Below are positions 11,024 to 21,220 of a stretch of DNA of 64,000 bases, one piece after another. Numbering within the stretch: position 1 is the first letter of the stretch; every line of letters begins with the position of its first letter. Under the pieces are notes generated by a model. That model ran no database searches. It was not told the origin of the DNA and saw only the letters and a list, made by a program, of their open reading frames with translations. The position numbers and the translations under genes were made by a program. This DNA comes from a plasmid. The stretch lies in assembly GCF_054482525.1 (NCBI RefSeq), contig NZ_JBTHVG010000003.1. One strand, given 5' to 3'.

Positions 11024-11843
11024 GGCACTGTTGCAAAGTTAGCGATGAGGCAGCCTTTTGTCTTATTCAAAGGCCTTACATTTCAAAAACTCTGCTTACC
11101 AGGCGCATTTCGCCCAGGGGATCACCATAATAAAATGCTGAGGCCTGGCCTTTGCGTAGTGCACGCATCACCTCAATACCTTTGATGGTGGCGTAAGCCG
11201 TCTTCATGGATTTAAATCCCAGCGTGGCGTTGATTATCCGTTTCAGTTTGCCATGATCGCATTCAATCACGTTGTTCCGGTACTTAATCTGTCGGTGTTC
11301 AACGTCAGACGGGCACCGGCCTTCGCGTTTGAGCAGAGCAAGCGCGCGACCATAGGCGGGCGCTTTATCCGTGTTGATGAATCGTGGGATCTGCCACTTC
11401 TTCACGTTGTTGAGGATTTTACCCAGAAACCGGTATGCAGCTTTGCTGTTACGACGGGAGGAGAGATAAAAATCGACAGTGCGGCCCCGGCTGTCGACGG
11501 CCCGGTACAGATACGCCCAGCGGCCATTGACCTTCACGTAGGTTTCATCCATGTGCCACGGGCAAAGATCGGAAGGGTTACGCCAGTACCAGCGCAGCCG
11601 TTTTTCCATTTCAGGCGCATAACGCTGAACCCAGCGGTAAATCGTGGAGTGATCGACATTCACTCCGCGTTCAGCCAGCATCTCCTGCAGCTCACGGTAA
11701 CTGATGCCGTATTTGCAGTACCAGCGTACGGCCCACAGAATGATGTCACGCTGAAAATGCCGGCCTTTGAATGGGTTCATGTGCAGCTCCATCAGCAAAA
11801 GGGGATGATAAGTTTATCACCACCGACTATTTGCAACAGTGCC
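11024..11843 (-). mobile_element. IS26 copy 3 (same orientation as copy 2; with copy 2 brackets oqxAB-oqxR as a Tn6010-like composite unit)
   Basis: IRs read directly; identical transposase. Confidence 0.95.
11076..11780 (-). CDS. tnpA: IS26 transposase
   Basis: Identical protein to copies 1 and 2. Confidence 0.95.
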   Translation of the reverse strand: MNPFKGRHFQRDIILWAVRWYCKYGISYRELQEMLAERGVNVDHSTIYRWVQRYAPEMEKRLRWYWRNPSDLCPWHMDETYVKVNGRWAYLYRAVDSRGRTVDFYLSSRRNSKAAYRFLGKILNNVKKWQIPRFINTDKAPAYGRALALLKREGRCPSDVEHRQIKYRNNVIECDHGKLKRIINATLGFKSMKTAYATIKGIEVMRALRKGQASAFYYGDPLGEMRLVSRVFEM

Positions 11844-12237: not shown

Positions 12238-12594
12238 TTATTTATCTTTCACCGGGTTCATTTCCCAGTATCTTTCACGTACGTTTTCTTGGCAATGGTC
12301 CGCTCGCTCCGGCGTGTCCCTTTTACGAGTAGCAAATGCTTCAATTACGGCATTCAAGTCTTTTTCTTTGATTTTAGATCCAACAGGCAAGTTTTCTTCA
12401 AACTCAGTCCTTACCAGTTCTTTCGTTTTTTTATAATCGGTTTCACTTTGGATTTCAGGTTTTAAACAAATATCGGCAACCATCACATCTGATTTGCCCG
12501 GGATCGGTTTTTTCCCGTTTTCAGATGCAAGGACCGCAGAGGAGGTAAAGGCGACAGACAGAGTTGCACATAACAGAAGGTATTTTAATTTCAT
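12238..12594 (-). CDS. Secreted small protein, hypothetical (N-terminal signal peptide)
   Basis: MKLKYLLLCATLSVAFTSSAVLA signal-like N-terminus; terminator downstream. Confidence 0.5.
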   Translation of the reverse strand: MKLKYLLLCATLSVAFTSSAVLASENGKKPIPGKSDVMVADICLKPEIQSETDYKKTKELVRTEFEENLPVGSKIKEKDLNAVIEAFATRKRDTPERADHCQENVRERYWEMNPVKDK

Positions 12595-12743: not shown

Positions 12744-13361
12744 TCAGGGGGAAATCAGATTGTTGTCGACCCAGTACTTGTGCAAACCTACCACCCAATT
12801 CCTGGAAATGGACGAAAGTTCATGCGCCAGTTCACGACAGCATTCAGGCGTAAAAATACGTATGGGTCCTGAAGTACCGATATCAACAGACATGATAAAC
12901 TCCAGAATGTTGCCATGGCATAGGTTGTTTCTCAGCCTGACAATTTCTGCTTCAGGTGTTCTCCCGGCTGCTACCTTAACCAACATATCCTGCTCGGCTG
13001 GAAATGAAAGTAATTCTACCGGCACCCCTTCCTGCTTGGCCTTTCTCAGTAAGGCATTACTCATTACGGAGATACCCTCCAAGTCCACCAGCTCAGGAGC
13101 TGCATGCTGATCGTTAACTGTTGGTTTCAGCATCAGCGACTTCAACGTAACCATGAGTGATGTTTCAATCCCGTTCAGGAAGCTCGTACAGGCCGGTATC
13201 CATAGTTCGTGATGCAACGCCTCGGTTGCTTGTTTAAAGAACCAGTCAATCACGGGGACAGTGTGATAATCATAATAGTGATTTATCTCGCTGAATCTTG
13301 ACATATAAGCATCGTACTCAGCCTGGTCTTCAGGAGATAAAAAATTTGGTGGGAGGGGCAT
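12744..13361 (-). CDS. Hypothetical protein
   Basis: 205-aa ORF, no recognised motifs. Confidence 0.4.
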   Translation of the reverse strand: MPLPPNFLSPEDQAEYDAYMSRFSEINHYYDYHTVPVIDWFFKQATEALHHELWIPACTSFLNGIETSLMVTLKSLMLKPTVNDQHAAPELVDLEGISVMSNALLRKAKQEGVPVELLSFPAEQDMLVKVAAGRTPEAEIVRLRNNLCHGNILEFIMSVDIGTSGPIRIFTPECCRELAHELSSISRNWVVGLHKYWVDNNLISP

Positions 13362-13515
13362 CAGAATCCTTTCATCCTAGCTTGTATACCTTCTTCGTAG
13401 GCCAGCTCGCCATTATCGGTAAAAGATGGTTTTTGGTGTTTGTGACAAAGCTTAATTTTTCGTCAGGCTCGATAGCGTTACCGGAGAGATTTGATCTTTT
13501 CTCTGTAACTCGCAA

Positions 13516-13535
13516 TACTGTTTATACATACAGTA
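13516..13535 (+). promoter_or_regulatory. LexA (SOS) box TACTGTTTATACATACAGTA upstream of the umuD-like gene
   Basis: CTGT-N8-ACAG palindrome 20 bp upstream of the start at 13555. Confidence 0.7.
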
Positions 13536-13554
13536 TGAGAATTCGAGTGTAGCT

Positions 13555-13989
13555 ATGTCTGTTATCCTTGAGCACATTAGCAACAAGCCTTACGAAATGG
13601 CACCTTTTTTCAGTGATTTACTGAGCTGTGGAGTGATGAGTCCGTGCGCCGGGCATGAAGATAATGAATTAAATTTGCATGAATATGTAGTCCGTAACCG
13701 CCCCTCAACCTTCTTTGTCAGGGCGGCGGGCCTCAGTATGATCAATGCCGGTATCAATGATGGCGCTATTCTGGTTGTGGATCGGTCTTTAACGGCACGA
13801 CACGGCTCTATCGTCGTTGCGCTGGTGGATGGAGAGTTCACGGTAAAGATCTTACACACGTATCCTGAGCTGCTTTTGATGCCTTCTAATCCAGCCTATA
13901 AGCCGATACGTGTAAATCCCGAATCCCTTGAGATATGGGGCGTCGTCACCTTTGCACTGAATCAGTTTAGCCATGTACATGCACGTTGA
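13555..13989 (+). CDS. UmuD/MucA-like translesion synthesis accessory protein (LexA-like S24 peptidase)
   Basis: 144 aa; ...GLSMINAGINDGAILVVD... S24 core; overlaps the downstream polymerase gene. Confidence 0.75.
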   Translation: MSVILEHISNKPYEMAPFFSDLLSCGVMSPCAGHEDNELNLHEYVVRNRPSTFFVRAAGLSMINAGINDGAILVVDRSLTARHGSIVVALVDGEFTVKILHTYPELLLMPSNPAYKPIRVNPESLEIWGVVTFALNQFSHVHAR

Positions 13990-15232
13990 TATTAACGGGG
14001 CCTATGCGGCATTTGAGTGTGCGATGGATCCCAAGCTGGCAAAAAAGCCGCTCATCATAGCCAGCAATAACGATTCGTCCGTCATTGCAATGAATAAACT
14101 GGCTAAAAGCGTTGGTATTAAGCGTGGGACCCCAATTTTTAAGTGCAGGGATTTGATTCAGCAACACCAGATCGAAGTCCGGAGCTCTAACTTTACTTTG
14201 TATGAAGACTACTCAAATCGCTTCCATGAAACGCTGGAAAGCTTCGCGCCTCAATCGAGTCGATATAGCATAGATGAAAATTTCATGTTATTGAAAAACA
14301 TGAACAAGATAATAGATTATGAAGATTACGGCCGGTTGATCAGAAGTACACTTCTTCATAATCTGTCCCTTACCTGTGGTGTGGGGTGTTCAAGCACCAA
14401 AACCCTGGCTAAATTATGCACCTATGCGAGCAAACGATGGGCAGCTACAGGCGGGGTTGTAGTTTTGACTGATCAGGCCAGGATCAGGAAGCTCCTGGGC
14501 CTTATCAGTACCAGAGAAATATGGGGTATTGGTCAAAAGATCAGTGAACGCCTGTCGGCTTTCGGGATCATCACTGCCGGTGATTTTTATAATAGCGACG
14601 TTCGCTTTTTACGTAAAAGCTTTGGCGTTGAAATCGAGCGTACCTGGCGGGAACTGCATGGCGAACCATGTTTCCGGCTGCATGAATCCCCTCCTGTCCG
14701 GCAACAGATTATCGTTTCCAGAAGTTTTGGTCAGCGCCTTAATGAGATAGGCAAGCTACATGAGGCAGTTTCATTTTTTACCGCCCGGGCGGCAGAGCAG
14801 CTGCGCAAGGATGGCTCGTGGACCCGTCAAATCACAGTCTTCATTCAGAGCAGCAATTATGCGCAAGGTGAAAACCGCTACAGCAATTGTGGTATCGAGC
14901 CGCTTACCGCTACACAGGACACCCGCGATCTGGTTGATGCAGCCATGACCATCCTGAACCGCATTTACAAACCCGGGATAGCGTATGCGAAAGCTGGGGT
15001 AATGCTCTCCGCTATGACTGACGGCACAGAGCAACTCAGCCTGTTTGATGAGCGCCCGGCCAGGCCTGGCAGTCAGGCACTGATGAAAGTTATGGACCGG
15101 TTCAATAAAGAAAAGCGCGGAGCTCTGTTTTTGCTGGGGGAAGGCATTCAACAGGATTTTCGTATGAAACAGGCCATGCTATCACCGAGATATACGACCC
15201 GCTGGGATGAATTACTCGTTGTAAAAGCGTAG
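13973..15232 (+). CDS. UmuC/MucB-like Y-family DNA polymerase
   Basis: 419 aa; ...VGCSSTKTLAKL..., ...RELHGEPC..., C-terminal ...QAMLSPRYTTRWDELLVVKA as in UmuC. Confidence 0.85.
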   Translation: MYMHVDINGAYAAFECAMDPKLAKKPLIIASNNDSSVIAMNKLAKSVGIKRGTPIFKCRDLIQQHQIEVRSSNFTLYEDYSNRFHETLESFAPQSSRYSIDENFMLLKNMNKIIDYEDYGRLIRSTLLHNLSLTCGVGCSSTKTLAKLCTYASKRWAATGGVVVLTDQARIRKLLGLISTREIWGIGQKISERLSAFGIITAGDFYNSDVRFLRKSFGVEIERTWRELHGEPCFRLHESPPVRQQIIVSRSFGQRLNEIGKLHEAVSFFTARAAEQLRKDGSWTRQITVFIQSSNYAQGENRYSNCGIEPLTATQDTRDLVDAAMTILNRIYKPGIAYAKAGVMLSAMTDGTEQLSLFDERPARPGSQALMKVMDRFNKEKRGALFLLGEGIQQDFRMKQAMLSPRYTTRWDELLVVKA

Positions 15233-15277
15233 CGGCCATGACCGGCATGGCCGTACTCATCAAAAGTGAAAGTAACT

Positions 15278-16087
15278 TTAGGCCCCGCGAGCTTTTTCGA
15301 TTGCGCCCTGCAAAGTTGCTGCGTCCATAGCCCCGGGGATAAATGTGGTAGTCGCCGCATTCGGCTTTTTCATATTCATAATGATGAAGCCGGGTGTGCC
15401 GGTGATCCCAAGCGCTTCGCCCAGCTGCATGTTGCCGGAGATCACGTTTTCATATCGGTTTTTTTCCCTGTCAGAAAACGTGCTGTTAAACCCTGACTTA
15501 TCCACCACAGTATTAAAGTCGCTGAGTTCGAATTTGCGTTGAGAGGTCATGAAGGTATGAGCCACAGCCATCAGGTTGTTGTGGTATTTACGATAGGCTT
15601 CAGCACCGAAATTCTGATAGACGTGCAGACCCGTAGCGGCCCCCATGGCAGATACAGGTTTTGAACCGGCAAAAATCGGGAATTCTTTAAAGAAGAATTT
15701 TACATCTTTGCTCTGATTCATTACCGATTCAACAACAGGTGTAACCCGCATGCAGTAAATACACTGATAGTCGAAGAACTCGATTACCGCGACGTCGGCG
15801 TCATCCGGGCCGATGTTTGGCGTCTCCTTGGTATCCAGCAGAGCTGGCGCATATGGAATTATTCGTTCCACTGAGGCACTTACGTTCTGATTTTCCAGCG
15901 CCTTACCTGCTTCCACTAAATAATGGGGATTTTTTACCAGGTAAGTAGCGGCAATTTTGCCAATTTCTTCCTCACTGAGCACCTTCGGTTTAAAATAAGT
16001 TGCCGCGATTAACGCCGAGGCAGCGGTAGCAATTACCGCAGAAATTAAAATCGTGGCCATCGGTTTTAAATAAAATTCTTTAGACAT
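15278..16087 (-). CDS. Membrane-anchored thioredoxin-fold (DsbA-like) disulfide oxidoreductase
   Basis: N-terminal TM segment; CxxC motif (CIYC) in ...FFDYQCIYCMRV... Confidence 0.5.
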   Translation of the reverse strand: MSKEFYLKPMATILISAVIATAASALIAATYFKPKVLSEEEIGKIAATYLVKNPHYLVEAGKALENQNVSASVERIIPYAPALLDTKETPNIGPDDADVAVIEFFDYQCIYCMRVTPVVESVMNQSKDVKFFFKEFPIFAGSKPVSAMGAATGLHVYQNFGAEAYRKYHNNLMAVAHTFMTSQRKFELSDFNTVVDKSGFNSTFSDREKNRYENVISGNMQLGEALGITGTPGFIIMNMKKPNAATTTFIPGAMDAATLQGAIEKARGA

Positions 16088-16193
16088 AGCTACCTTTATG
16101 CTTTTCAGCCTGTTAGTTATTAACCTGCGATGGATTATACTGGCCCGGTAAATCGGAATTATTCGTGAAACAATGCTTTTTGGAGATTAAAGG

Positions 16194-16805
16194 ATGATTA
16201 GGCAGGGCTTTATACTCACAACCGCAATGCTTTTGAGTGGTTGTGGATATCATTTCGCAAACCAGGTAGATGCGTACGATCTAATGCCTCGTCCTGTTAC
16301 AAATAAAAGGTTTCAGATAGTCCCTCCGGACGAAAGTATTCAGTCCAGAATGTTTTCAGGCCGTTTTGCTGATGGATTAGCAAAAAAAGGAGTCATTATT
16401 TCCACTCACCAGCCAGATTATGTGCTCAGGTTCCGAATGAGCAGCTCACAGGAGAACATGCAGTATAGCGAGCAGCTTCTTACTGGGGTGACAGGCTACG
16501 TTGTAGATAAAAAGACAACGAGAACTGACAAGCATGGCGAATCGCATACTGACTATGACTACAGGCCGGTCGATGGGGTAATAGGCACTGAGACGATGTC
16601 GCAGATGCACTATATGCGACAGCTGGATGTCGAGGTATACCCGTCAGCGAAAGGAGCAAAGCAGGTTCTGAAAGTGAGTATGCAAAGCAATGCACCTGTG
16701 CCGTCAGACAGCATTGCTTATTCAGCAATGATCGACGCCTTTACTGATAAATTTGATGCGCCGCTGCGTTCCGGAAATTATGTTGCAGTGATCCCCTGGA
16801 ACTGA
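16194..16805 (+). CDS. Lipoprotein, hypothetical
   Basis: Lipobox LLSGC near N-terminus. Confidence 0.5.
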   Translation: MIRQGFILTTAMLLSGCGYHFANQVDAYDLMPRPVTNKRFQIVPPDESIQSRMFSGRFADGLAKKGVIISTHQPDYVLRFRMSSSQENMQYSEQLLTGVTGYVVDKKTTRTDKHGESHTDYDYRPVDGVIGTETMSQMHYMRQLDVEVYPSAKGAKQVLKVSMQSNAPVPSDSIAYSAMIDAFTDKFDAPLRSGNYVAVIPWN

Positions 16806-16864
16806 AAGCAGACGGCGGGAAGAGAATGTTCAAAAGTGACTTTTGGACACGCACATAAACGTGG

Positions 16865-17287
16865 CTATCGCCCTCCCCCATTAAAATCATAAAGTCGGTA
16901 AAGATCGCCCATCGTGATGGAATTGGGCTTATTAATGATTAGATACTGTAACTGTTCTTTATGTTGAGTACTGGCGGCTGCATTCATAAGCACTTCCAGG
17001 TAGAACTTGTAGCCTATGCTTCGCTCTGAATACATATACTGGAACTGCATCAGTAAAATGCCTGACATAACATACAACAGCAGCAGACTGAGTAACACAG
17101 TGCTATCAGGCTGTTCCAGTGCCATACTGACATACCCTGAACCCAGAATGCACAGAAGCCAACCCGTCATTAGAGCAGGCACCCTACGACTCAGACGTTC
17201 ATAACAACGTTTTATTACGGGATCCCGGAGATACTTTTTGTCAGGTATCCCCGTTGCCCTGATGACGAAGTTACTGAGTATCGACAT
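16865..17287 (-). CDS. Small membrane protein, hypothetical
   Basis: Hydrophobic segments; 140 aa. Confidence 0.4.
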   Translation of the reverse strand: MSILSNFVIRATGIPDKKYLRDPVIKRCYERLSRRVPALMTGWLLCILGSGYVSMALEQPDSTVLLSLLLLYVMSGILLMQFQYMYSERSIGYKFYLEVLMNAAASTQHKEQLQYLIINKPNSITMGDLYRLYDFNGGGR

Positions 17288-17320
17288 CTTTTTTCCTTCT
17301 GGACGCTCTCAGTCAATAAA

Positions 17321-17719
17321 TCAGGCCAGGCGCTCATTGAAAGCTACCACGAGCTGCGAATCGGGATTTTTTACCAGTTCGGGCCGGATAACTTTTAGTT
17401 GCCTCGTTGGGGCGAGCTCATCTGTAGGCCTGATGGTGGTATTACCCGGCCCCTTGCGGGTACTGTCGGTGTTTACCTTGAGCTTTTTATTTCCCAGGTA
17501 GCTTTCCATCTTTTTAGAGATGGTGTCACCTGTGGTCGCAACACCAGAGAGTTCCTTTAGTTGTTCACCTTGATCCATTTGTACCGATGACATCAGAAAT
17601 ACGATTCCTGGATCGTTTTCCGTTCCACAGGCTCCGTACTGACATTGTGCAGCGAAAACGGGCTGTACACCTACAGCAACCAGCATTAACGTACTCAGTA
17701 AAGTAGATTTCATACACAC
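17321..17719 (-). CDS. Secreted protein, hypothetical (signal peptide)
   Basis: MKSTLLSTLMLVAVGVQPVFA signal; probable true start at 17713. Confidence 0.45.
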   Translation of the reverse strand: MCMKSTLLSTLMLVAVGVQPVFAAQCQYGACGTENDPGIVFLMSSVQMDQGEQLKELSGVATTGDTISKKMESYLGNKKLKVNTDSTRKGPGNTTIRPTDELAPTRQLKVIRPELVKNPDSQLVVAFNERLA

Positions 17720-17733
17720 CTCTTACAGTCGGA

Positions 17734-17744
17734 AAAGTTACTTT
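17734..17744. promoter_or_regulatory. AAAGT(A/T)ACTTT palindrome copy
   Basis: ggAAAAGTTACTTTTGcg; between DsbC-like stop and next gene start. Confidence 0.5.
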
Positions 17745-18487
17745 TGCGCAGCGCCCATTTGGGTCACCAGGTTTTCCGGGCTCAGCCACCCCGTAAATAA
17801 CTGCGGTTTGCCGCTTAGTGTCACCATGGTAGGAGTACCTTGCAGCGGGATTGTTGAGGCCACCTGGAAATGCGATTTGATAATGTTTAAGCAAGCCTCA
17901 TCAGGACGTCCTTCCGGGATAGTTGAAACCGGATTCATCGCTGCATCCAGAGCTTCGTTTGGCTTTGCTGAACACCAGATTTTGGCCATGTTCCCGGCTA
18001 CTACCGAGTTCAGTCCTGCACGTGGGAATGCAAGAAACTTAATCGAAATACCGGCATCAAGATAAGACTTCAGATCATGATGCAGTTTTTGGCAGTATCC
18101 ACAGGTTATATCGGTAAAGATAGCAAGCCGGTATTTTTCGTTTGGTGATTTGTAGTCGATGGATTTTGTTTTGGATGCGAATTCCCGGACGCCCATTAAA
18201 ATGGCCTGCTCAGTGGTGTTTACCACATCTTTACCTTTCACGTGGAATAAGCTTCCGGTAAAAATGTAATCTCCGTCTTTGCTCACGTAACTTACCCCCT
18301 CCCTGGAAATCACCGTAAAAATATCTTTTACTGGCGAGGGTTCGACGTGCTCGATTGAAAGCCCAATGGCTTTGAGCTTATCCCGGGCTGCATCTGGCAG
18401 TACCATTGTATTAACCGGCTCGGCATTCATCGTGAAGGCGGTACTTAATGAAAGAAGTAATACCGATGCCTTAATAATTTTTTTCAT
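17738..18487 (-). CDS. DsbC-like periplasmic thiol:disulfide interchange protein
   Basis: Signal peptide plus CGYC active site in ...FTDITCGYCQKLH... Confidence 0.75.
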   Translation of the reverse strand: MKKIIKASVLLLSLSTAFTMNAEPVNTMVLPDAARDKLKAIGLSIEHVEPSPVKDIFTVISREGVSYVSKDGDYIFTGSLFHVKGKDVVNTTEQAILMGVREFASKTKSIDYKSPNEKYRLAIFTDITCGYCQKLHHDLKSYLDAGISIKFLAFPRAGLNSVVAGNMAKIWCSAKPNEALDAAMNPVSTIPEGRPDEACLNIIKSHFQVASTIPLQGTPTMVTLSGKPQLFTGWLSPENLVTQMGAAQK

Positions 18488-18634
18488 TTATGCTCCTTGA
18501 ATCGAGCACTAATATTATCACGCCCAAAAATTCCAGAATTTTGCTTAAACGCTTAAATCAACGGGTAAAGCCGAAAGAAAGTCGATAGATATATGGGAGA
18601 ATAGATAAAACGTAGATTCAGTGGAGAAATCGTT

Positions 18635-19174
18635 GTGTTTACACCACCAGCAGATGATGTGAAACCTATTCCCGTTCCTGATGAGATTTACACTCAGTGC
18701 ATTACGGATGCCGCCCGCTTCTTCGGAATTGATGCCGAACTGGTTTTTACGTTGTTTGACAATGAAGGCGGTAAGGTTGGTACTTTCAGCAGGAATACTA
18801 ACGGCACTTATGATATTGGCCCGATGCAGATCAACTCATCCAATCTGCCTGAAATAAAAAAGCATTTCCCGACTGTAACGTGGCGGGTTCTGGCTTACGA
18901 TGCTTGCGCTAGTTTCTGGGTTGGAACATGGTGGCTCTACAGAAAAATTGTTGATCGCAAGGGCAATGTGTTTGAAGGGATTGCAGATTACAACAGCAAA
19001 ACCCCAAAGGTACGTGCAAAGTACATATTTAACTTCATGGTAAAGTACAATCGCCGGATCCAGCAGCGTAACGGGATGGGTGAGCTTTATCAATGGACCC
19101 AACAACCTCCTCGATACAATGGCCATATAGCTAAAAATGTCCCGGAGCAAAACCCGACTCCTGTTGTTAAATAA
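18635..19174 (+). CDS. Lytic transglycosylase (SLT domain), conjugation-associated peptidoglycan hydrolase
   Basis: ...YDIGPMQINS... lytic transglycosylase signature. Confidence 0.7.
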   Translation: MFTPPADDVKPIPVPDEIYTQCITDAARFFGIDAELVFTLFDNEGGKVGTFSRNTNGTYDIGPMQINSSNLPEIKKHFPTVTWRVLAYDACASFWVGTWWLYRKIVDRKGNVFEGIADYNSKTPKVRAKYIFNFMVKYNRRIQQRNGMGELYQWTQQPPRYNGHIAKNVPEQNPTPVVK

Positions 19175-19930: not shown

Positions 19931-21220
19931 TTAAGCTTGCTGCTCAGTTTGGTTCCGGTGCTGAAAAACCTGCCAACGGTGCTTTAGGAATTCAGTATTG
20001 ATGGGTTTACGCAGCGGCTTAATAAACTCTCCTTGATATGCCGCTAAATCATGATCTACCGCCAAAGCTTCAGCGAGAATGTTAACCTCCAACGTCACCG
20101 GATGAATGGCAATCATGTTTGCGTCGAAAAGATCGTGTATATCATGGCGTAAGAGCAACCCATTTGTATAATGGTCTACTCCTCCGTTACGATGCTCCAT
20201 CAGATGAGCAGCCTCAGTGCGCTGGCGCAGTCTAGAGCCTGTAATCACACATTGGTCATAACAGTTGTTGCGGACGGCTTCTGCAAATGAGGCCTGATCT
20301 GGTCGTGTCTCGACAGTTGTCTTACTACCCTTACGCTTACCCGGTACAGTAGTTTCATCAGGAATATTCGGCTGAAGCTCCTTTTCTTCTATACCATCAG
20401 TCTTCATAGCGACCATAATCGCGGCCGGTGGAGATTTAGGCTGATCTTCCTGCGATCTTTCGCGGCCACCAACTGGATACCCTAGAAAACCCTCAATGAT
20501 CTCTAGTGGAGGTAATGTAGCGTTTGAACGTGCATAAATAGCGAACTCTGCGGCACGTCCGCCGGGAATATATCTACGTACCAGTATTGGAAGAGAGGCT
20601 TCTTCATCTGGTTCCTCTTTTTCCGACAGGATTATTCGTTCGGTGAGACGGGCTGAATTTTTTTTCATTTCACTCAACAGTCTATTGCGTTCTTTTACCT
20701 TTCGGTCATTATCCTCCAACATCTTACGATGACTAACCTTAGCCAGATGGTCTTCCAGTTCCTGTATATATTCGGGATCGATAGTGTCAATTAGACCGAA
20801 CGCCATCAACCGCTCCCCCCTTGTTTTACAAGATTCTAGCCGAACGCGAATGTACTCCTTACGCTTGGCCATCAAATGTTCTTTTTGTTTTTTTTCTCGA
20901 ATTACACGGAGCTGAGTATTGTAATTAGAATAAACGGTTTCGCTATTCTGCTCTGTCTCTAGAGCAAATTTTTGTAGGTGTTCACGTAGTTTTTTACGGG
21001 TATTTTTGGGGGCATGCATTACGGTACGCTCAATGTATGAGCCTGTGCAGCGTAAAGAAAGTACAGTTTCAGCATGGGAATAACCAGCATTGAGACGATA
21101 GCGGGCAATTTTAAGCAAATTATTAAAGTGTGCACCATTACATATACCTAGTTCTTCCAAGACACGACGTTCTCTATCATTAATAGATGGATGGTTAATA
21201 TCTTTTACTTTGTTTGCCAT
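19931..21220 (-). CDS. HNH endonuclease-domain protein with charged coiled-coil N-terminal region
   Basis: C-terminal ...EAAHLMEHRNGGVDHYTNGLLLRHDIHDLFD... HNH signature; own terminator upstream; monocistronic. Confidence 0.6.
   Translation of the reverse strand: MANKVKDINHPSINDRERRVLEELGICNGAHFNNLLKIARYRLNAGYSHAETVLSLRCTGSYIERTVMHAPKNTRKKLREHLQKFALETEQNSETVYSNYNTQLRVIREKKQKEHLMAKRKEYIRVRLESCKTRGERLMAFGLIDTIDPEYIQELEDHLAKVSHRKMLEDNDRKVKERNRLLSEMKKNSARLTERIILSEKEEPDEEASLPILVRRYIPGGRAAEFAIYARSNATLPPLEIIEGFLGYPVGGRERSQEDQPKSPPAAIMVAMKTDGIEEKELQPNIPDETTVPGKRKGSKTTVETRPDQASFAEAVRNNCYDQCVITGSRLRQRTEAAHLMEHRNGGVDHYTNGLLLRHDIHDLFDANMIAIHPVTLEVNILAEALAVDHDLAAYQGEFIKPLRKPINTEFLKHRWQVFQHRNQTEQQA

Follow-up and report, generated by a model that had tools for sequence, protein, structure and literature searches.

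The stretch of 64,000 nucleotides analysed here (the window) belongs to an IncHI2 plasmid and carries a umuDC operon for DNA polymerase V (Pol V), followed by a cluster of genes for Dsb-type thiol oxidoreductases, a lipoprotein and further envelope proteins. This region very probably consists of two functionally independent modules of the IncHI2 backbone, i.e., the Pol V operon (module 1, 13491-15232) and a periplasmic set serving conjugation (module 2, 15278-19174, probably extended by the HAD gene to 19823). A sequence-only reading of the same DNA had described umuDC and the Dsb cluster as neighbours; the convergent orientation of the genes, RNA-seq data for the IncHI1 plasmid R27 and the gene content of relatives show them to be unrelated.

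The block is syntenic in R27, with the same order and orientation, and every protein has an ortholog there at 45-90% identity (about 75% identity at the DNA level). The R27 genes R0129-R0137 run in the order HAD, bfpH/trbN-like, dsbC, three open reading frames (ORFs), dsbA, mucB and mucA, and the orthologs of umuD, umuC, the DsbA-like gene and the DsbC-like gene are labelled mucA (R0137), mucB (R0136), dsbA (R0135) and dsbC (R0131), respectively. According to published RNA-seq tables, R0129-R0135 were upregulated 19.5-, 20.6-, 13.0-, 8.1-, 10.3-, 6.0- and 6.0-fold in an R27 htdA mutant at 25 °C, whereas mucB and mucA changed only 1.47- and 1.27-fold; R0135 was induced 3.4-fold at 25 °C. R27 dsbA and bfpH are induced under all conjugation-promoting conditions, and mucAB falls into the HtdA-independent set (PMC7366339). 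In the window, umuC and the DsbA-like gene converge on a gap of 45 bp. In distant relatives found through the lipoprotein (L008, L010, L011 and L012), the genes for the DsbA-like protein, the lipoprotein, the proteins of 140 and 130 amino acids (aa), the DsbC-like protein and the SLT-domain lytic transglycosylase always adjoin TraG_N-TraH-TraF; umuDC is missing from L010 and L011, and in L008 and L012 it is set apart from the cluster by two to three unrelated genes.

The operon is plasmid-borne, as the earlier reading had stated. Over the 6.3 kb around umuDC, 100% identity is shared with many large conjugative plasmids from E. coli, Salmonella, Enterobacter and Klebsiella, including the representative pSTM6-275 (typed as IncHI2A, MOBH and MPF_F), and more than 900 records match at least 80% of this query. 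The gene order in pSTM6-275 is a hypothetical protein of 205 aa (minus strand), umuD and umuC (plus), a DsbA family protein (minus), a hypothetical protein (plus), two hypothetical proteins (minus), a thioredoxin-fold protein (minus), a lytic transglycosylase and a HAD-domain protein (both plus), HNH, trhG (TraG_N), trhH and a TraF-like thioredoxin protein. The umuDC/Dsb block is plasmid backbone beside the transfer region Tra1, and the IS26/integron resistance region lies directly upstream of it. Everything in the region is already annotated in IncHI plasmids, in which mucAB/umuDC, dsbA and dsbC have been labelled since the R27 and R478 sequences, and dsbC has already been tested; an SOS box ahead of a Pol V operon is a textbook arrangement.

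We propose that module 2 is a periplasmic accessory set within the Tra1 region of the H-type, F-like type IV secretion system (T4SS), and that two divergent promoters in its intergenic regions drive it in response to the HtdA/TrhRY conjugation circuit and not to LexA. Its two thiol oxidoreductases would form and reshuffle disulfides in Cys-rich periplasmic Tra proteins, the SLT protein would open the peptidoglycan for the transfer apparatus, and the plasmid Dsb pair would make transfer less dependent on the Dsb system of the host. The cluster is most likely a dedicated oxidative-folding and cell-wall-opening accessory set of the H-type T4SS that is partly redundant with host Dsb. The suggestion that the Dsb proteins are T4SS helpers is supported by the R27 dsbC phenotype, by co-induction with tra genes upon htdA loss and by the linkage to TraG_N/TraH/TraF. 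The deletion of dsb genes in dsb-deficient hosts, proposed along with it, has already been performed for the R27 dsbC ortholog, and transfer is reported to have fallen about 10^4-fold, but only in dsbC-null hosts (Elton 2005 as cited in PMC10838148). We carry the R27 results over to the window plasmid by orthology at 75-90% identity, and the Tra clients and the roles of three unnamed cluster proteins are putative. TrhH, which is encoded adjacent to the cluster, has seven Cys residues, and TrhF has a CQFC motif of its own.

The DsbA-like protein of module 2 scores 72.2 bits against Pfam DSBA (cut-off 25.6), also matches Thioredoxin_4, and is 75% identical to R27 R0135; its CIYC motif occupies residues 109-112 and is accompanied by a TGTPGF loop. 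The top solved relative found with phmmer is Salmonella BcfH (7JVE; E=1.5e-35, 32% identity over residues 37-268, 229 aligned), followed by ScsC proteins, Wolbachia alpha-DsbA2 and a '27-kDa OMP'. BcfH is a DsbA-like protein that forms trimers through its N-terminal helix (PMC11653150). The alignment with 7JVE starts at residue 37 and takes in this trimerisation-helix segment (EEIGKIAATYLVKNPHYLVEAGKAL versus DKVGEVVATYLAEHPEFLVAASETL), and the sequence comparison suggests that the protein is closer to the trimeric BcfH/ScsC class than to classical DsbA. The membrane-anchored CxxC thioredoxin-fold protein of the earlier reading is kept (269 aa, hydrophobic N-terminus, CIYC) and its class refined from DsbA-like to BcfH/ScsC. 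With the group of BcfH, ScsC, Wolbachia alpha-DsbA2 and Com1-like proteins it shares the FFDYQCxxC active-site context, the GTP loop and the N-terminal helical segment. For BcfH, the gene of which lies in a fimbrial operon, Subedi et al. (2021) reportedly found oxidase as well as isomerase activity. The IncHI gene is likewise linked to a surface organelle, but to a T4SS and not to chaperone-usher fimbriae, and the 21-residue hydrophobic stretch at the IncHI N-terminus may be an uncleaved anchor.

The presence of a DsbC-like CGYC protein was confirmed (249 aa, DsbC_N plus thioredoxin domain). It scores 51.6 bits against Pfam DsbC_N (cut-off 25) and 59.8 bits against Thioredoxin_2, matches DsbC relatives in the PDB at E=1e-43 to 1e-37, and is 84% identical to R27 DsbC; the FTDITCGYC context is identical to that of solved DsbC proteins, and a QGTPT loop as well as Cys172 and Cys199 are present. 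Since its score against the NCBIfam DsbC equivalog NF008129 (178.3 bits) lies below the cut-off of 215, we regard it as a plasmid paralog and not as the chromosomal ortholog. The CxxC dipeptides differ between IncHI2 and IncHI1 in both oxidoreductases (CIYC versus CHFC in the DsbA-like protein, CGYC versus CGFC in the DsbC-like protein), and these residues tune the redox potential of Dsb proteins. IncHI plasmids have at least three further CxxC proteins, namely the BcfH-like protein, TrhF (CQFC) and HtdT, an isomerase that R478 encodes in Tra2. The F plasmid TrbB, SXT s054 and Rts1 Orf206 are comparable CxxC thioredoxin-fold proteins of the periplasm; their genes accompany MPF_F transfer genes, and they contribute to conjugation, often redundantly with host DsbC (PMC10838148). 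TrbB has a disordered N-terminus and lacks a dimerisation domain, whereas the IncHI protein with its DsbC_N domain is a candidate DsbC-type dimer.

The lipoprotein (203 aa, lipobox LLSG|C) and the secreted protein (about 130 aa, with a signal peptide) named by the sequence-only reading are both present. Its gene list was correct for the genes it named, overlooked the 140-aa membrane protein, and stopped just before the SLT gene of the same module. The lipoprotein shows an alpha/beta fold of the PelC/LptE/TraT/DUF4136 type; its identity to such lipoproteins is only 8-13%, and the window protein gives no match to Pfam DUF4136, which is matched weakly by 8 of 14 homologs (best E=3.7e-05). EexA and EexB are the exclusion factors of IncHI1. 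The identity of the lipoprotein with R27 EexB was rejected because the EexA/EexB genes reportedly lie in the Tra2 Z operon (Gunton 2008). The 140-aa protein has no family match in Pfam, NCBIfam, PADLOC or PHROGs; the same holds for the secreted protein of about 130 aa, for which AlphaFold2 gave no confident fold (mean predicted local distance difference test score 52). The families of the lipoprotein, the 140-aa and the 130-aa protein are confined to IncHI-like elements, and a second, weaker reading is that these three unnamed proteins are parts of the H-type T4SS that have escaped recognition, with a role in its structure or in exclusion. The SLT protein matches NCBIfam TrbN/IagB-like models below their cut-offs.

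RefSeq/PGAP annotations of IncHI2 plasmids start two of these genes too late. The lipoprotein is reduced to its C-terminal 115 aa, without signal peptide and lipobox, and the membrane protein to 86 aa (L001 12459-12806 and 12866-13126, within window 16194-16805 and 16865-17287). At full length, both ORFs (203 and 140 aa) are uninterrupted and align end to end with the R27 proteins, which are annotated at full length. In the divergent intergenic region 16088-16193, the blocks ACCTT, TTAG and GATTATACTG are conserved across five lineages, and so are the blocks TTATCAYGC, GCTTAA and ATGGGAGAAT in the divergent region 18488-18634; these blocks may represent promoters or sites for regulators of the HtdA/TrhRY circuit.

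For module 1, we propose that host LexA represses umuDC until DNA damage or incoming single-stranded DNA activates RecA, with the LexA operator occluding the promoter by its overlap with the -10 element and the transcription start region. After induction, UmuD would cleave itself at Cys25-Gly26 by means of Ser61 and Lys98, and lesions would then be bypassed in an error-prone manner by the resulting UmuD'2C complex. We predict the binding of LexA, the inducibility of the operon and its polymerase activity from observed sequence features, family membership and the conservation of promoter and operator.

Both genes belong, as judged from their sequences, to the Pol V families, and their cleavage site and catalytic residues are intact. 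The umuD-like and umuC-like genes of the earlier reading correspond to a Peptidase_S24 protein of 144 aa and a protein of 419 aa with IMS, IMS_C and DUF4113 domains. UmuD matches Pfam Peptidase_S24 at E=2e-24 and the NCBIfam Pol V autoproteolytic subunit at 129.8 bits (cut-off 110). It aligns in register with the E. coli UmuD structures 8gmt/1umu (SCG/QCG, GLSM/GDSM, FTVK/FTVK), so that C25-G26, S61 and K98 correspond to E. coli C24-G25, S60 and K97. A UmuDAb-like repressor was ruled out by the normal UmuD length without a DNA-binding N-terminal domain. UmuC scores 464.7 bits against NCBIfam UmuC (cut-off 431), its D6 and D101-E102 (SIDE) align with the catalytic residues of Pol IV, Tyr11 is kept, and a QLSLF motif of the clamp-binding type can be read from the sequence. 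UmuD is 81% identical to its R27 ortholog, 43% to E. coli UmuD and 49% to IncN MucA; the corresponding values for UmuC are 84% (R27), 48% (E. coli UmuC) and 46% (MucB). E. coli UmuC and MucB share 57% identity, more than either shares with the IncHI protein. On these identities, the IncHI umuDC genes thus branch separately within Pol V, and 'mucAB', as used for R27, is a label and not a statement of orthology. R27 annotation describes mucAB as 'UV protection'.

The IncHI2 operon resembles that of E. coli in the order umuD-umuC, the Cys-Gly site with the Ser/Lys dyad, the catalytic D and DE, the DUF4113 tail and the QLxLF motif. It differs in being plasmid-borne, in the overlap of the two genes (17 nt versus 1 nt in E. 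coli) and in UmuC residue 10 (Ala versus Phe). Around the steric gate (13973-14010), UmuC residues 9-11 are Gly-Ala-Tyr in IncHI, Ala-Phe-Tyr in E. coli and Gly-Met-Tyr in MucB; the unusually small residue beside the steric-gate Tyr might affect sugar or base selectivity. IncN mucAB (pKM101/R46) is likewise a plasmid Pol V ortholog with an SOS box upstream (TACTGTATAAATAAACAGTG in an IncN plasmid), but MucA is cleaved at Ala-Gly, whereas the IncHI UmuD keeps Cys-Gly. In L008 (3472-4140) and L012 (3146-3817), a gene for an SOS-response-associated peptidase (SRAP, PF02586) stands directly 5' of umuDC and co-oriented with it; in IncHI1 and IncHI2 this position holds the divergent 205-aa protein.

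The perfect CTGT-N8-ACAG box that had been placed about 20 bp upstream of umuD was found at 13518-13533 (CTGTTTATACATACAG) as the core of a 20-mer, TACTGTTTATACATACAGTA; the umuD ATG at 13555 begins 21 nt after ACAG and 19 nt after the end of the 20-mer. TACTGTTTATACATACAGTA has 2 mismatches in 20 positions to the E. coli SOS consensus TACTG(TA)5CAGTA and is the only match in the 64 kb at up to 3 mismatches, with no match in 100 shuffles. The bare 16-mer pattern CTGT-N8-ACAG is weaker evidence than the 20-mer, with 3 matches in the window against 0.76 expected; the other two, at 16696 (inside the lipoprotein ORF) and 34341, were dismissed as chance matches on account of their GC-rich interior, missing TA flanks and more than 3 mismatches to the 20-mer. 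The predicted operator overlaps the putative -10 element, a layout like that of E. coli K-12 umuDC, which has the same -35 TTGATC, a 20-nt SOS box on its -10 and a box (TACTGTATATAAAAACAGTA) that also deviates by 2 mismatches. The distance from the -35 to the box is 17 nt in K-12 versus 19 nt in IncHI2.

The operon was compared across four plasmid lineages that have diverged from one another, namely IncHI2, IncHI1/R27, a Buttiauxella plasmid contig (L008) and a metagenomic relative (L012). TTGATCT, the 19-nt distance to the box and the arms TACTG...CAGT are invariant in all four, whereas the spacer, the box interior and the upstream flank vary. The alignment shows TTGATCT to be identical across all five plasmid sequences and E. 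coli K-12 umuDC, while the -10 reads GATACT in the other lineages versus AATACT in the window. Between IncHI1 and IncHI2, the DNA similarity upstream of umuD starts just ahead of the -35. In the IncHI1 box TACTGGTTAAATATCCAGTA, the interior and positions 6 and 15 differ from IncHI2, and both half-sites are altered symmetrically (CTGG...CCAG) with the dyad kept, as expected of a site read by a dimer; CTGG...CCAG is also present in the E. coli ruvAB operator. A working LexA operator is thereby supported as strongly as sequence evidence allows, and the near-consensus operator on the -10, the K-12-like layout and the conservation across lineages favour the predicted SOS control of the plasmid umuDC. 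The -35 heptamer (13491-13497) includes a GATC Dam site shared by all plasmid lineages and K-12 umuDC, and the activity of the promoter could vary with methylation, e.g., directly after replication or transfer.

In several IncHI2 records, the matching region is split in two by a 1909-nt group II intron between 13516 and 13517 (L014 718-2626; Rfam RF02005, 185 bits, minus strand). Its ORF has a reverse transcriptase domain only. The intron is inserted inside the -10 (AAT|ACT) at the left edge of the SOS box, antisense to umuDC and without target duplication, and about 30 IncHI2 plasmids (about 3%) share the junction. The same intron occurs in more than 4000 plasmids, and copies elsewhere occupy the identical position in other SOS boxes, namely those ahead of an E. 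coli IncF umuD, at a colicin/microcin-type locus and ahead of a different Klebsiella umuD, where the ATG again lies 38 nt away. The loci with the intron besides L014 are L016, L018, L019 and L020-L111. A search of genome and metagenome collections with the 5'-terminal 21-mer of the intron yielded 94 copies with 76 distinct flanks. Strict ACTGT-N8-ACAG was present in 52 of the 76 flanks and CTG-N10-CAG in 63 (83%), among which 32 box sequences were distinguished; degenerate or truncated boxes account for most of the other flanks, and two of the few unrelated ones come from an alphaproteobacterial metagenome-assembled genome. The identifiable downstream genes encode UmuD (three families), Pol IV, ImuA and a ParD antitoxin, and all are antisense to the intron.

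We lean towards the view that the LexA operator of the window is a natural homing site, empty here, of a widespread intron family specific for T^ACTGT-N8-ACAG and always inserted antisense. The only candidate for exon-binding site 1 (EBS1) spans 5 nt, ACUGU at intron nt 187, complementary to the proximal arm. Class C introns recognise terminators as hairpins. Since both arms are conserved although EBS1 covers only 5 nt, the sequences suggest that the palindrome is read out as a IIC-like hairpin, through an interplay with LexA occupancy, or in another way. We found no description of SOS-box homing by a group II intron in the searchable literature, the coverage of which is incomplete, and we offer it as a lead and not as a claim of priority.

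Several observations weigh against our interpretation of the two modules, and they are considered here together with the alternatives that they favour. In module 2, dsbC is the only gene with a reported phenotype, which is known second-hand and only from dsbC-null hosts; no function has been reported for R0135 and R0132-R0134 (PMC10838148). The cluster might accordingly serve the host envelope in general, in copper or oxidative stress like ScsC or in the folding of resistance or adhesin proteins: ScsC copper-stress proteins and the fimbrial BcfH are among the closest solved structures to the DsbA-like protein, the restriction of the dsbC phenotype points to redundancy with general host functions, and IncHI2 plasmids carry many metal-resistance genes (PMC4855149). 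We consider this unlikely, as the cluster accompanies TraG_N/TraH/TraF without exception in the relatives, even with different cargo, responds together with the tra genes to htdA loss and low temperature, contains an SLT protein of the TrbN/VirB1 type, and has precedents in TrbB, s054 and Orf206.

In module 1, the intron cuts umuDC off from the -35 and most of the -10 in the 3% of IncHI2 plasmids that carry it, so a plasmid can persist without expression from the umuDC promoter. Together with the relatives L010 and L011 that do without umuDC, and with records holding truncated umuC fragments (H70, H120), this could mean that umuDC is a non-functional or dispensable passenger and its box a relic. 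Such a passenger role is slightly less probable still: neither ORF is damaged, no catalytic or processing residue is lost, more than 900 sequenced IncHI2 plasmids carry the operon, and the 81-84% identity between IncHI1 and IncHI2, with promoter elements better kept than the surrounding intergenic DNA, indicates purifying selection.

A further alternative takes the palindrome for a chance dyad or the site of a plasmid-encoded regulator, with umuDC independent of the SOS response. In its favour, no experiment on LexA binding, SOS inducibility or mutagenesis for any IncHI umuDC was found in the searchable literature, and R27 RNA-seq without DNA-damaging treatment detected moderate mucAB read counts; repression may be leaky, or the reads may originate elsewhere. 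The generic sigma-70 promoter scan missed the umuDC promoter (score 8/12, threshold 9/12), and the promoter assignment therefore rests on conservation. We nevertheless hold a palindrome without LexA function to be very unlikely, given a match to the 20-nt consensus as good as that of the E. coli umuDC box and unseen in shuffled sequence, arms and a position to the -35 that are kept in four lineages with diverged flanks, the symmetric change in IncHI1 that preserves the dyad, and the use of the same site by an intron family that inserts almost only at LexA-type operators of SOS genes.

Hardly credible and largely refuted is the reading of the whole stretch as one functional unit, with SOS-controlled Dsb/lipoprotein genes or umuDC in the transfer regulon: the adjacency is kept in IncHI1 and IncHI2 and has a parallel in K-12, but the facing genes converge, no SOS box lies elsewhere in the cluster, htdA loss raises the cluster 6-20-fold and mucAB only about 1.3-1.5-fold, and the cluster stays with Tra1 where umuDC is absent (L010, L011) or separated by inserted genes (L008, L012). 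In K-12 (L006, 1230300-1232700), umuDC is followed by a convergent dsbB across a gap that also measures 45 bp (15233-15277 in the window). An ancestral umuDC-dsb adjacency was rejected, as no sequence similarity exists between the K-12 and IncHI gaps and DsbB is unrelated to the plasmid protein; the matching gaps are most likely a coincidence.

The features of the region are collected in Table 1.

Table 1. Coordinates of features in and around the umuDC/Dsb block of the window
Feature	Position	Strand	Remarks
118-aa secreted-looking backbone protein	12238-12594	-	33% identical to R27; divergent from umuD
205-aa backbone protein, function not assigned	12744-13361	-	53% identical to R27; divergent from umuD
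Putative -35, TTGATC	13491-13496	+	Contains GATC Dam site; from conservation and spacing
Putative -10, AATACT	13514-13519	+	17-nt spacer from -35; 4-nt overlap with SOS box; assignment indirect
SOS box, predicted LexA operator TACTGTTTATACATACAGTA	13516-13535	.	Arms kept in four lineages; also empty homing site (13516|13517) of group II intron
umuD (R27 mucA ortholog), 144 aa	13555-13989	+	Peptidase_S24; Cys25-Gly26 cleavage site, Ser61, Lys98
umuC (R27 mucB ortholog), 419-aa Y-family polymerase	13973-15232	+	IMS, IMS_C, DUF4113; 17-nt overlap with umuD
GC-rich hairpin GGCCATG-ACCGG-CATGGCC, possible bidirectional terminator	15234-15252	.	Low confidence; read from sequence, between convergent umuC and dsbA-like gene
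DsbA-family BcfH/ScsC-like thiol oxidoreductase (R27 R0135 'dsbA'), 269 aa	15278-16087	-	N-terminal hydrophobic anchor or signal, long helical linker, CIYC, TGTP loop
Outer-membrane-type lipoprotein (R27 R0134), 203 aa	16194-16805	+	Lipobox LLSG|C; PelC/TraT/LptE/DUF4136-like fold with long beta-hairpin
140-aa predicted inner-membrane protein with two transmembrane segments (R27 R0133)	16865-17287	-	Position kept in all relatives; 45% identical to R27
Secreted protein, about 130 aa (R27 R0132)	17321-17713	-	Signal peptide; invariant C-x4-C at mature N-terminus; conserved C-terminal ELAPxRQLKxIRPELV
Plasmid DsbC paralog (R27 R0131 'dsbC'), 249 aa	17738-18487	-	Signal peptide, DsbC_N dimerisation domain, CGYC, GTP loop, second Cys pair
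SLT-domain lytic transglycosylase (R27 R0130 'bfpH, trbN-like')	18635-19174	+	Pfam SLT; divergent from DsbC-like gene; 90% identical to R27
429-aa protein with C-terminal HNH motif	19931-21220	-	Between HAD gene and trhG in the IncHI2 lineage of the window

R27 also has a hairpin in the position of the one between umuC and the DsbA-like gene. The hairpin of the window lacks a T-tract, and the terminator scan did not report it. Upstream of umuDC, the 205-aa and 118-aa proteins gave no matches in Pfam, NCBIfam, PADLOC and PHROGs, and the promoter region of the 205-aa gene is not conserved between IncHI1 and IncHI2. An IS26 transposase ORF (11076-11798) delimits the multiresistance region, about 0.4 kb from the 118-aa gene and 1.7 kb upstream of the SOS box; in an identical record this region carries a class 1 integron with dfrA12-aadA2, plus tet(A). 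Downstream, the slot between the HAD gene and trhG is variable, as another IncHI2 lineage (L003) has a different HNH gene and a YrhA-family gene there, and in IncHI1 it is empty. The PADLOC and PHROGs scans of the unnamed proteins returned only an HNH match for the 429-aa protein and a phrog of unknown function for the HAD protein; no protein of the Dsb cluster was matched. An Rfam scan of 12-20 kb at E<=1 gave no match.

IncHI2 plasmids play a major part in carrying mcr, blaNDM, oqxAB and similar genes, and an SOS-inducible mutator polymerase on such a plasmid could raise the mutation supply under treatment with quinolones or other DNA-damaging agents. To what was already annotated, our analysis adds the promoter/operator footprint, the split into two modules, the assignment of the BcfH-like protein, the fold of the lipoprotein and the correction of gene starts in RefSeq. 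The BcfH-like protein, the lipoprotein with the PelC/TraT fold and the HtdA-regulated six-gene unit with Tra1 provide handles on the H-type transfer system. The homing of an intron to LexA operators, by which SOS genes are uncoupled from their promoters, would be relevant to the fields of both retroelements and the SOS response.

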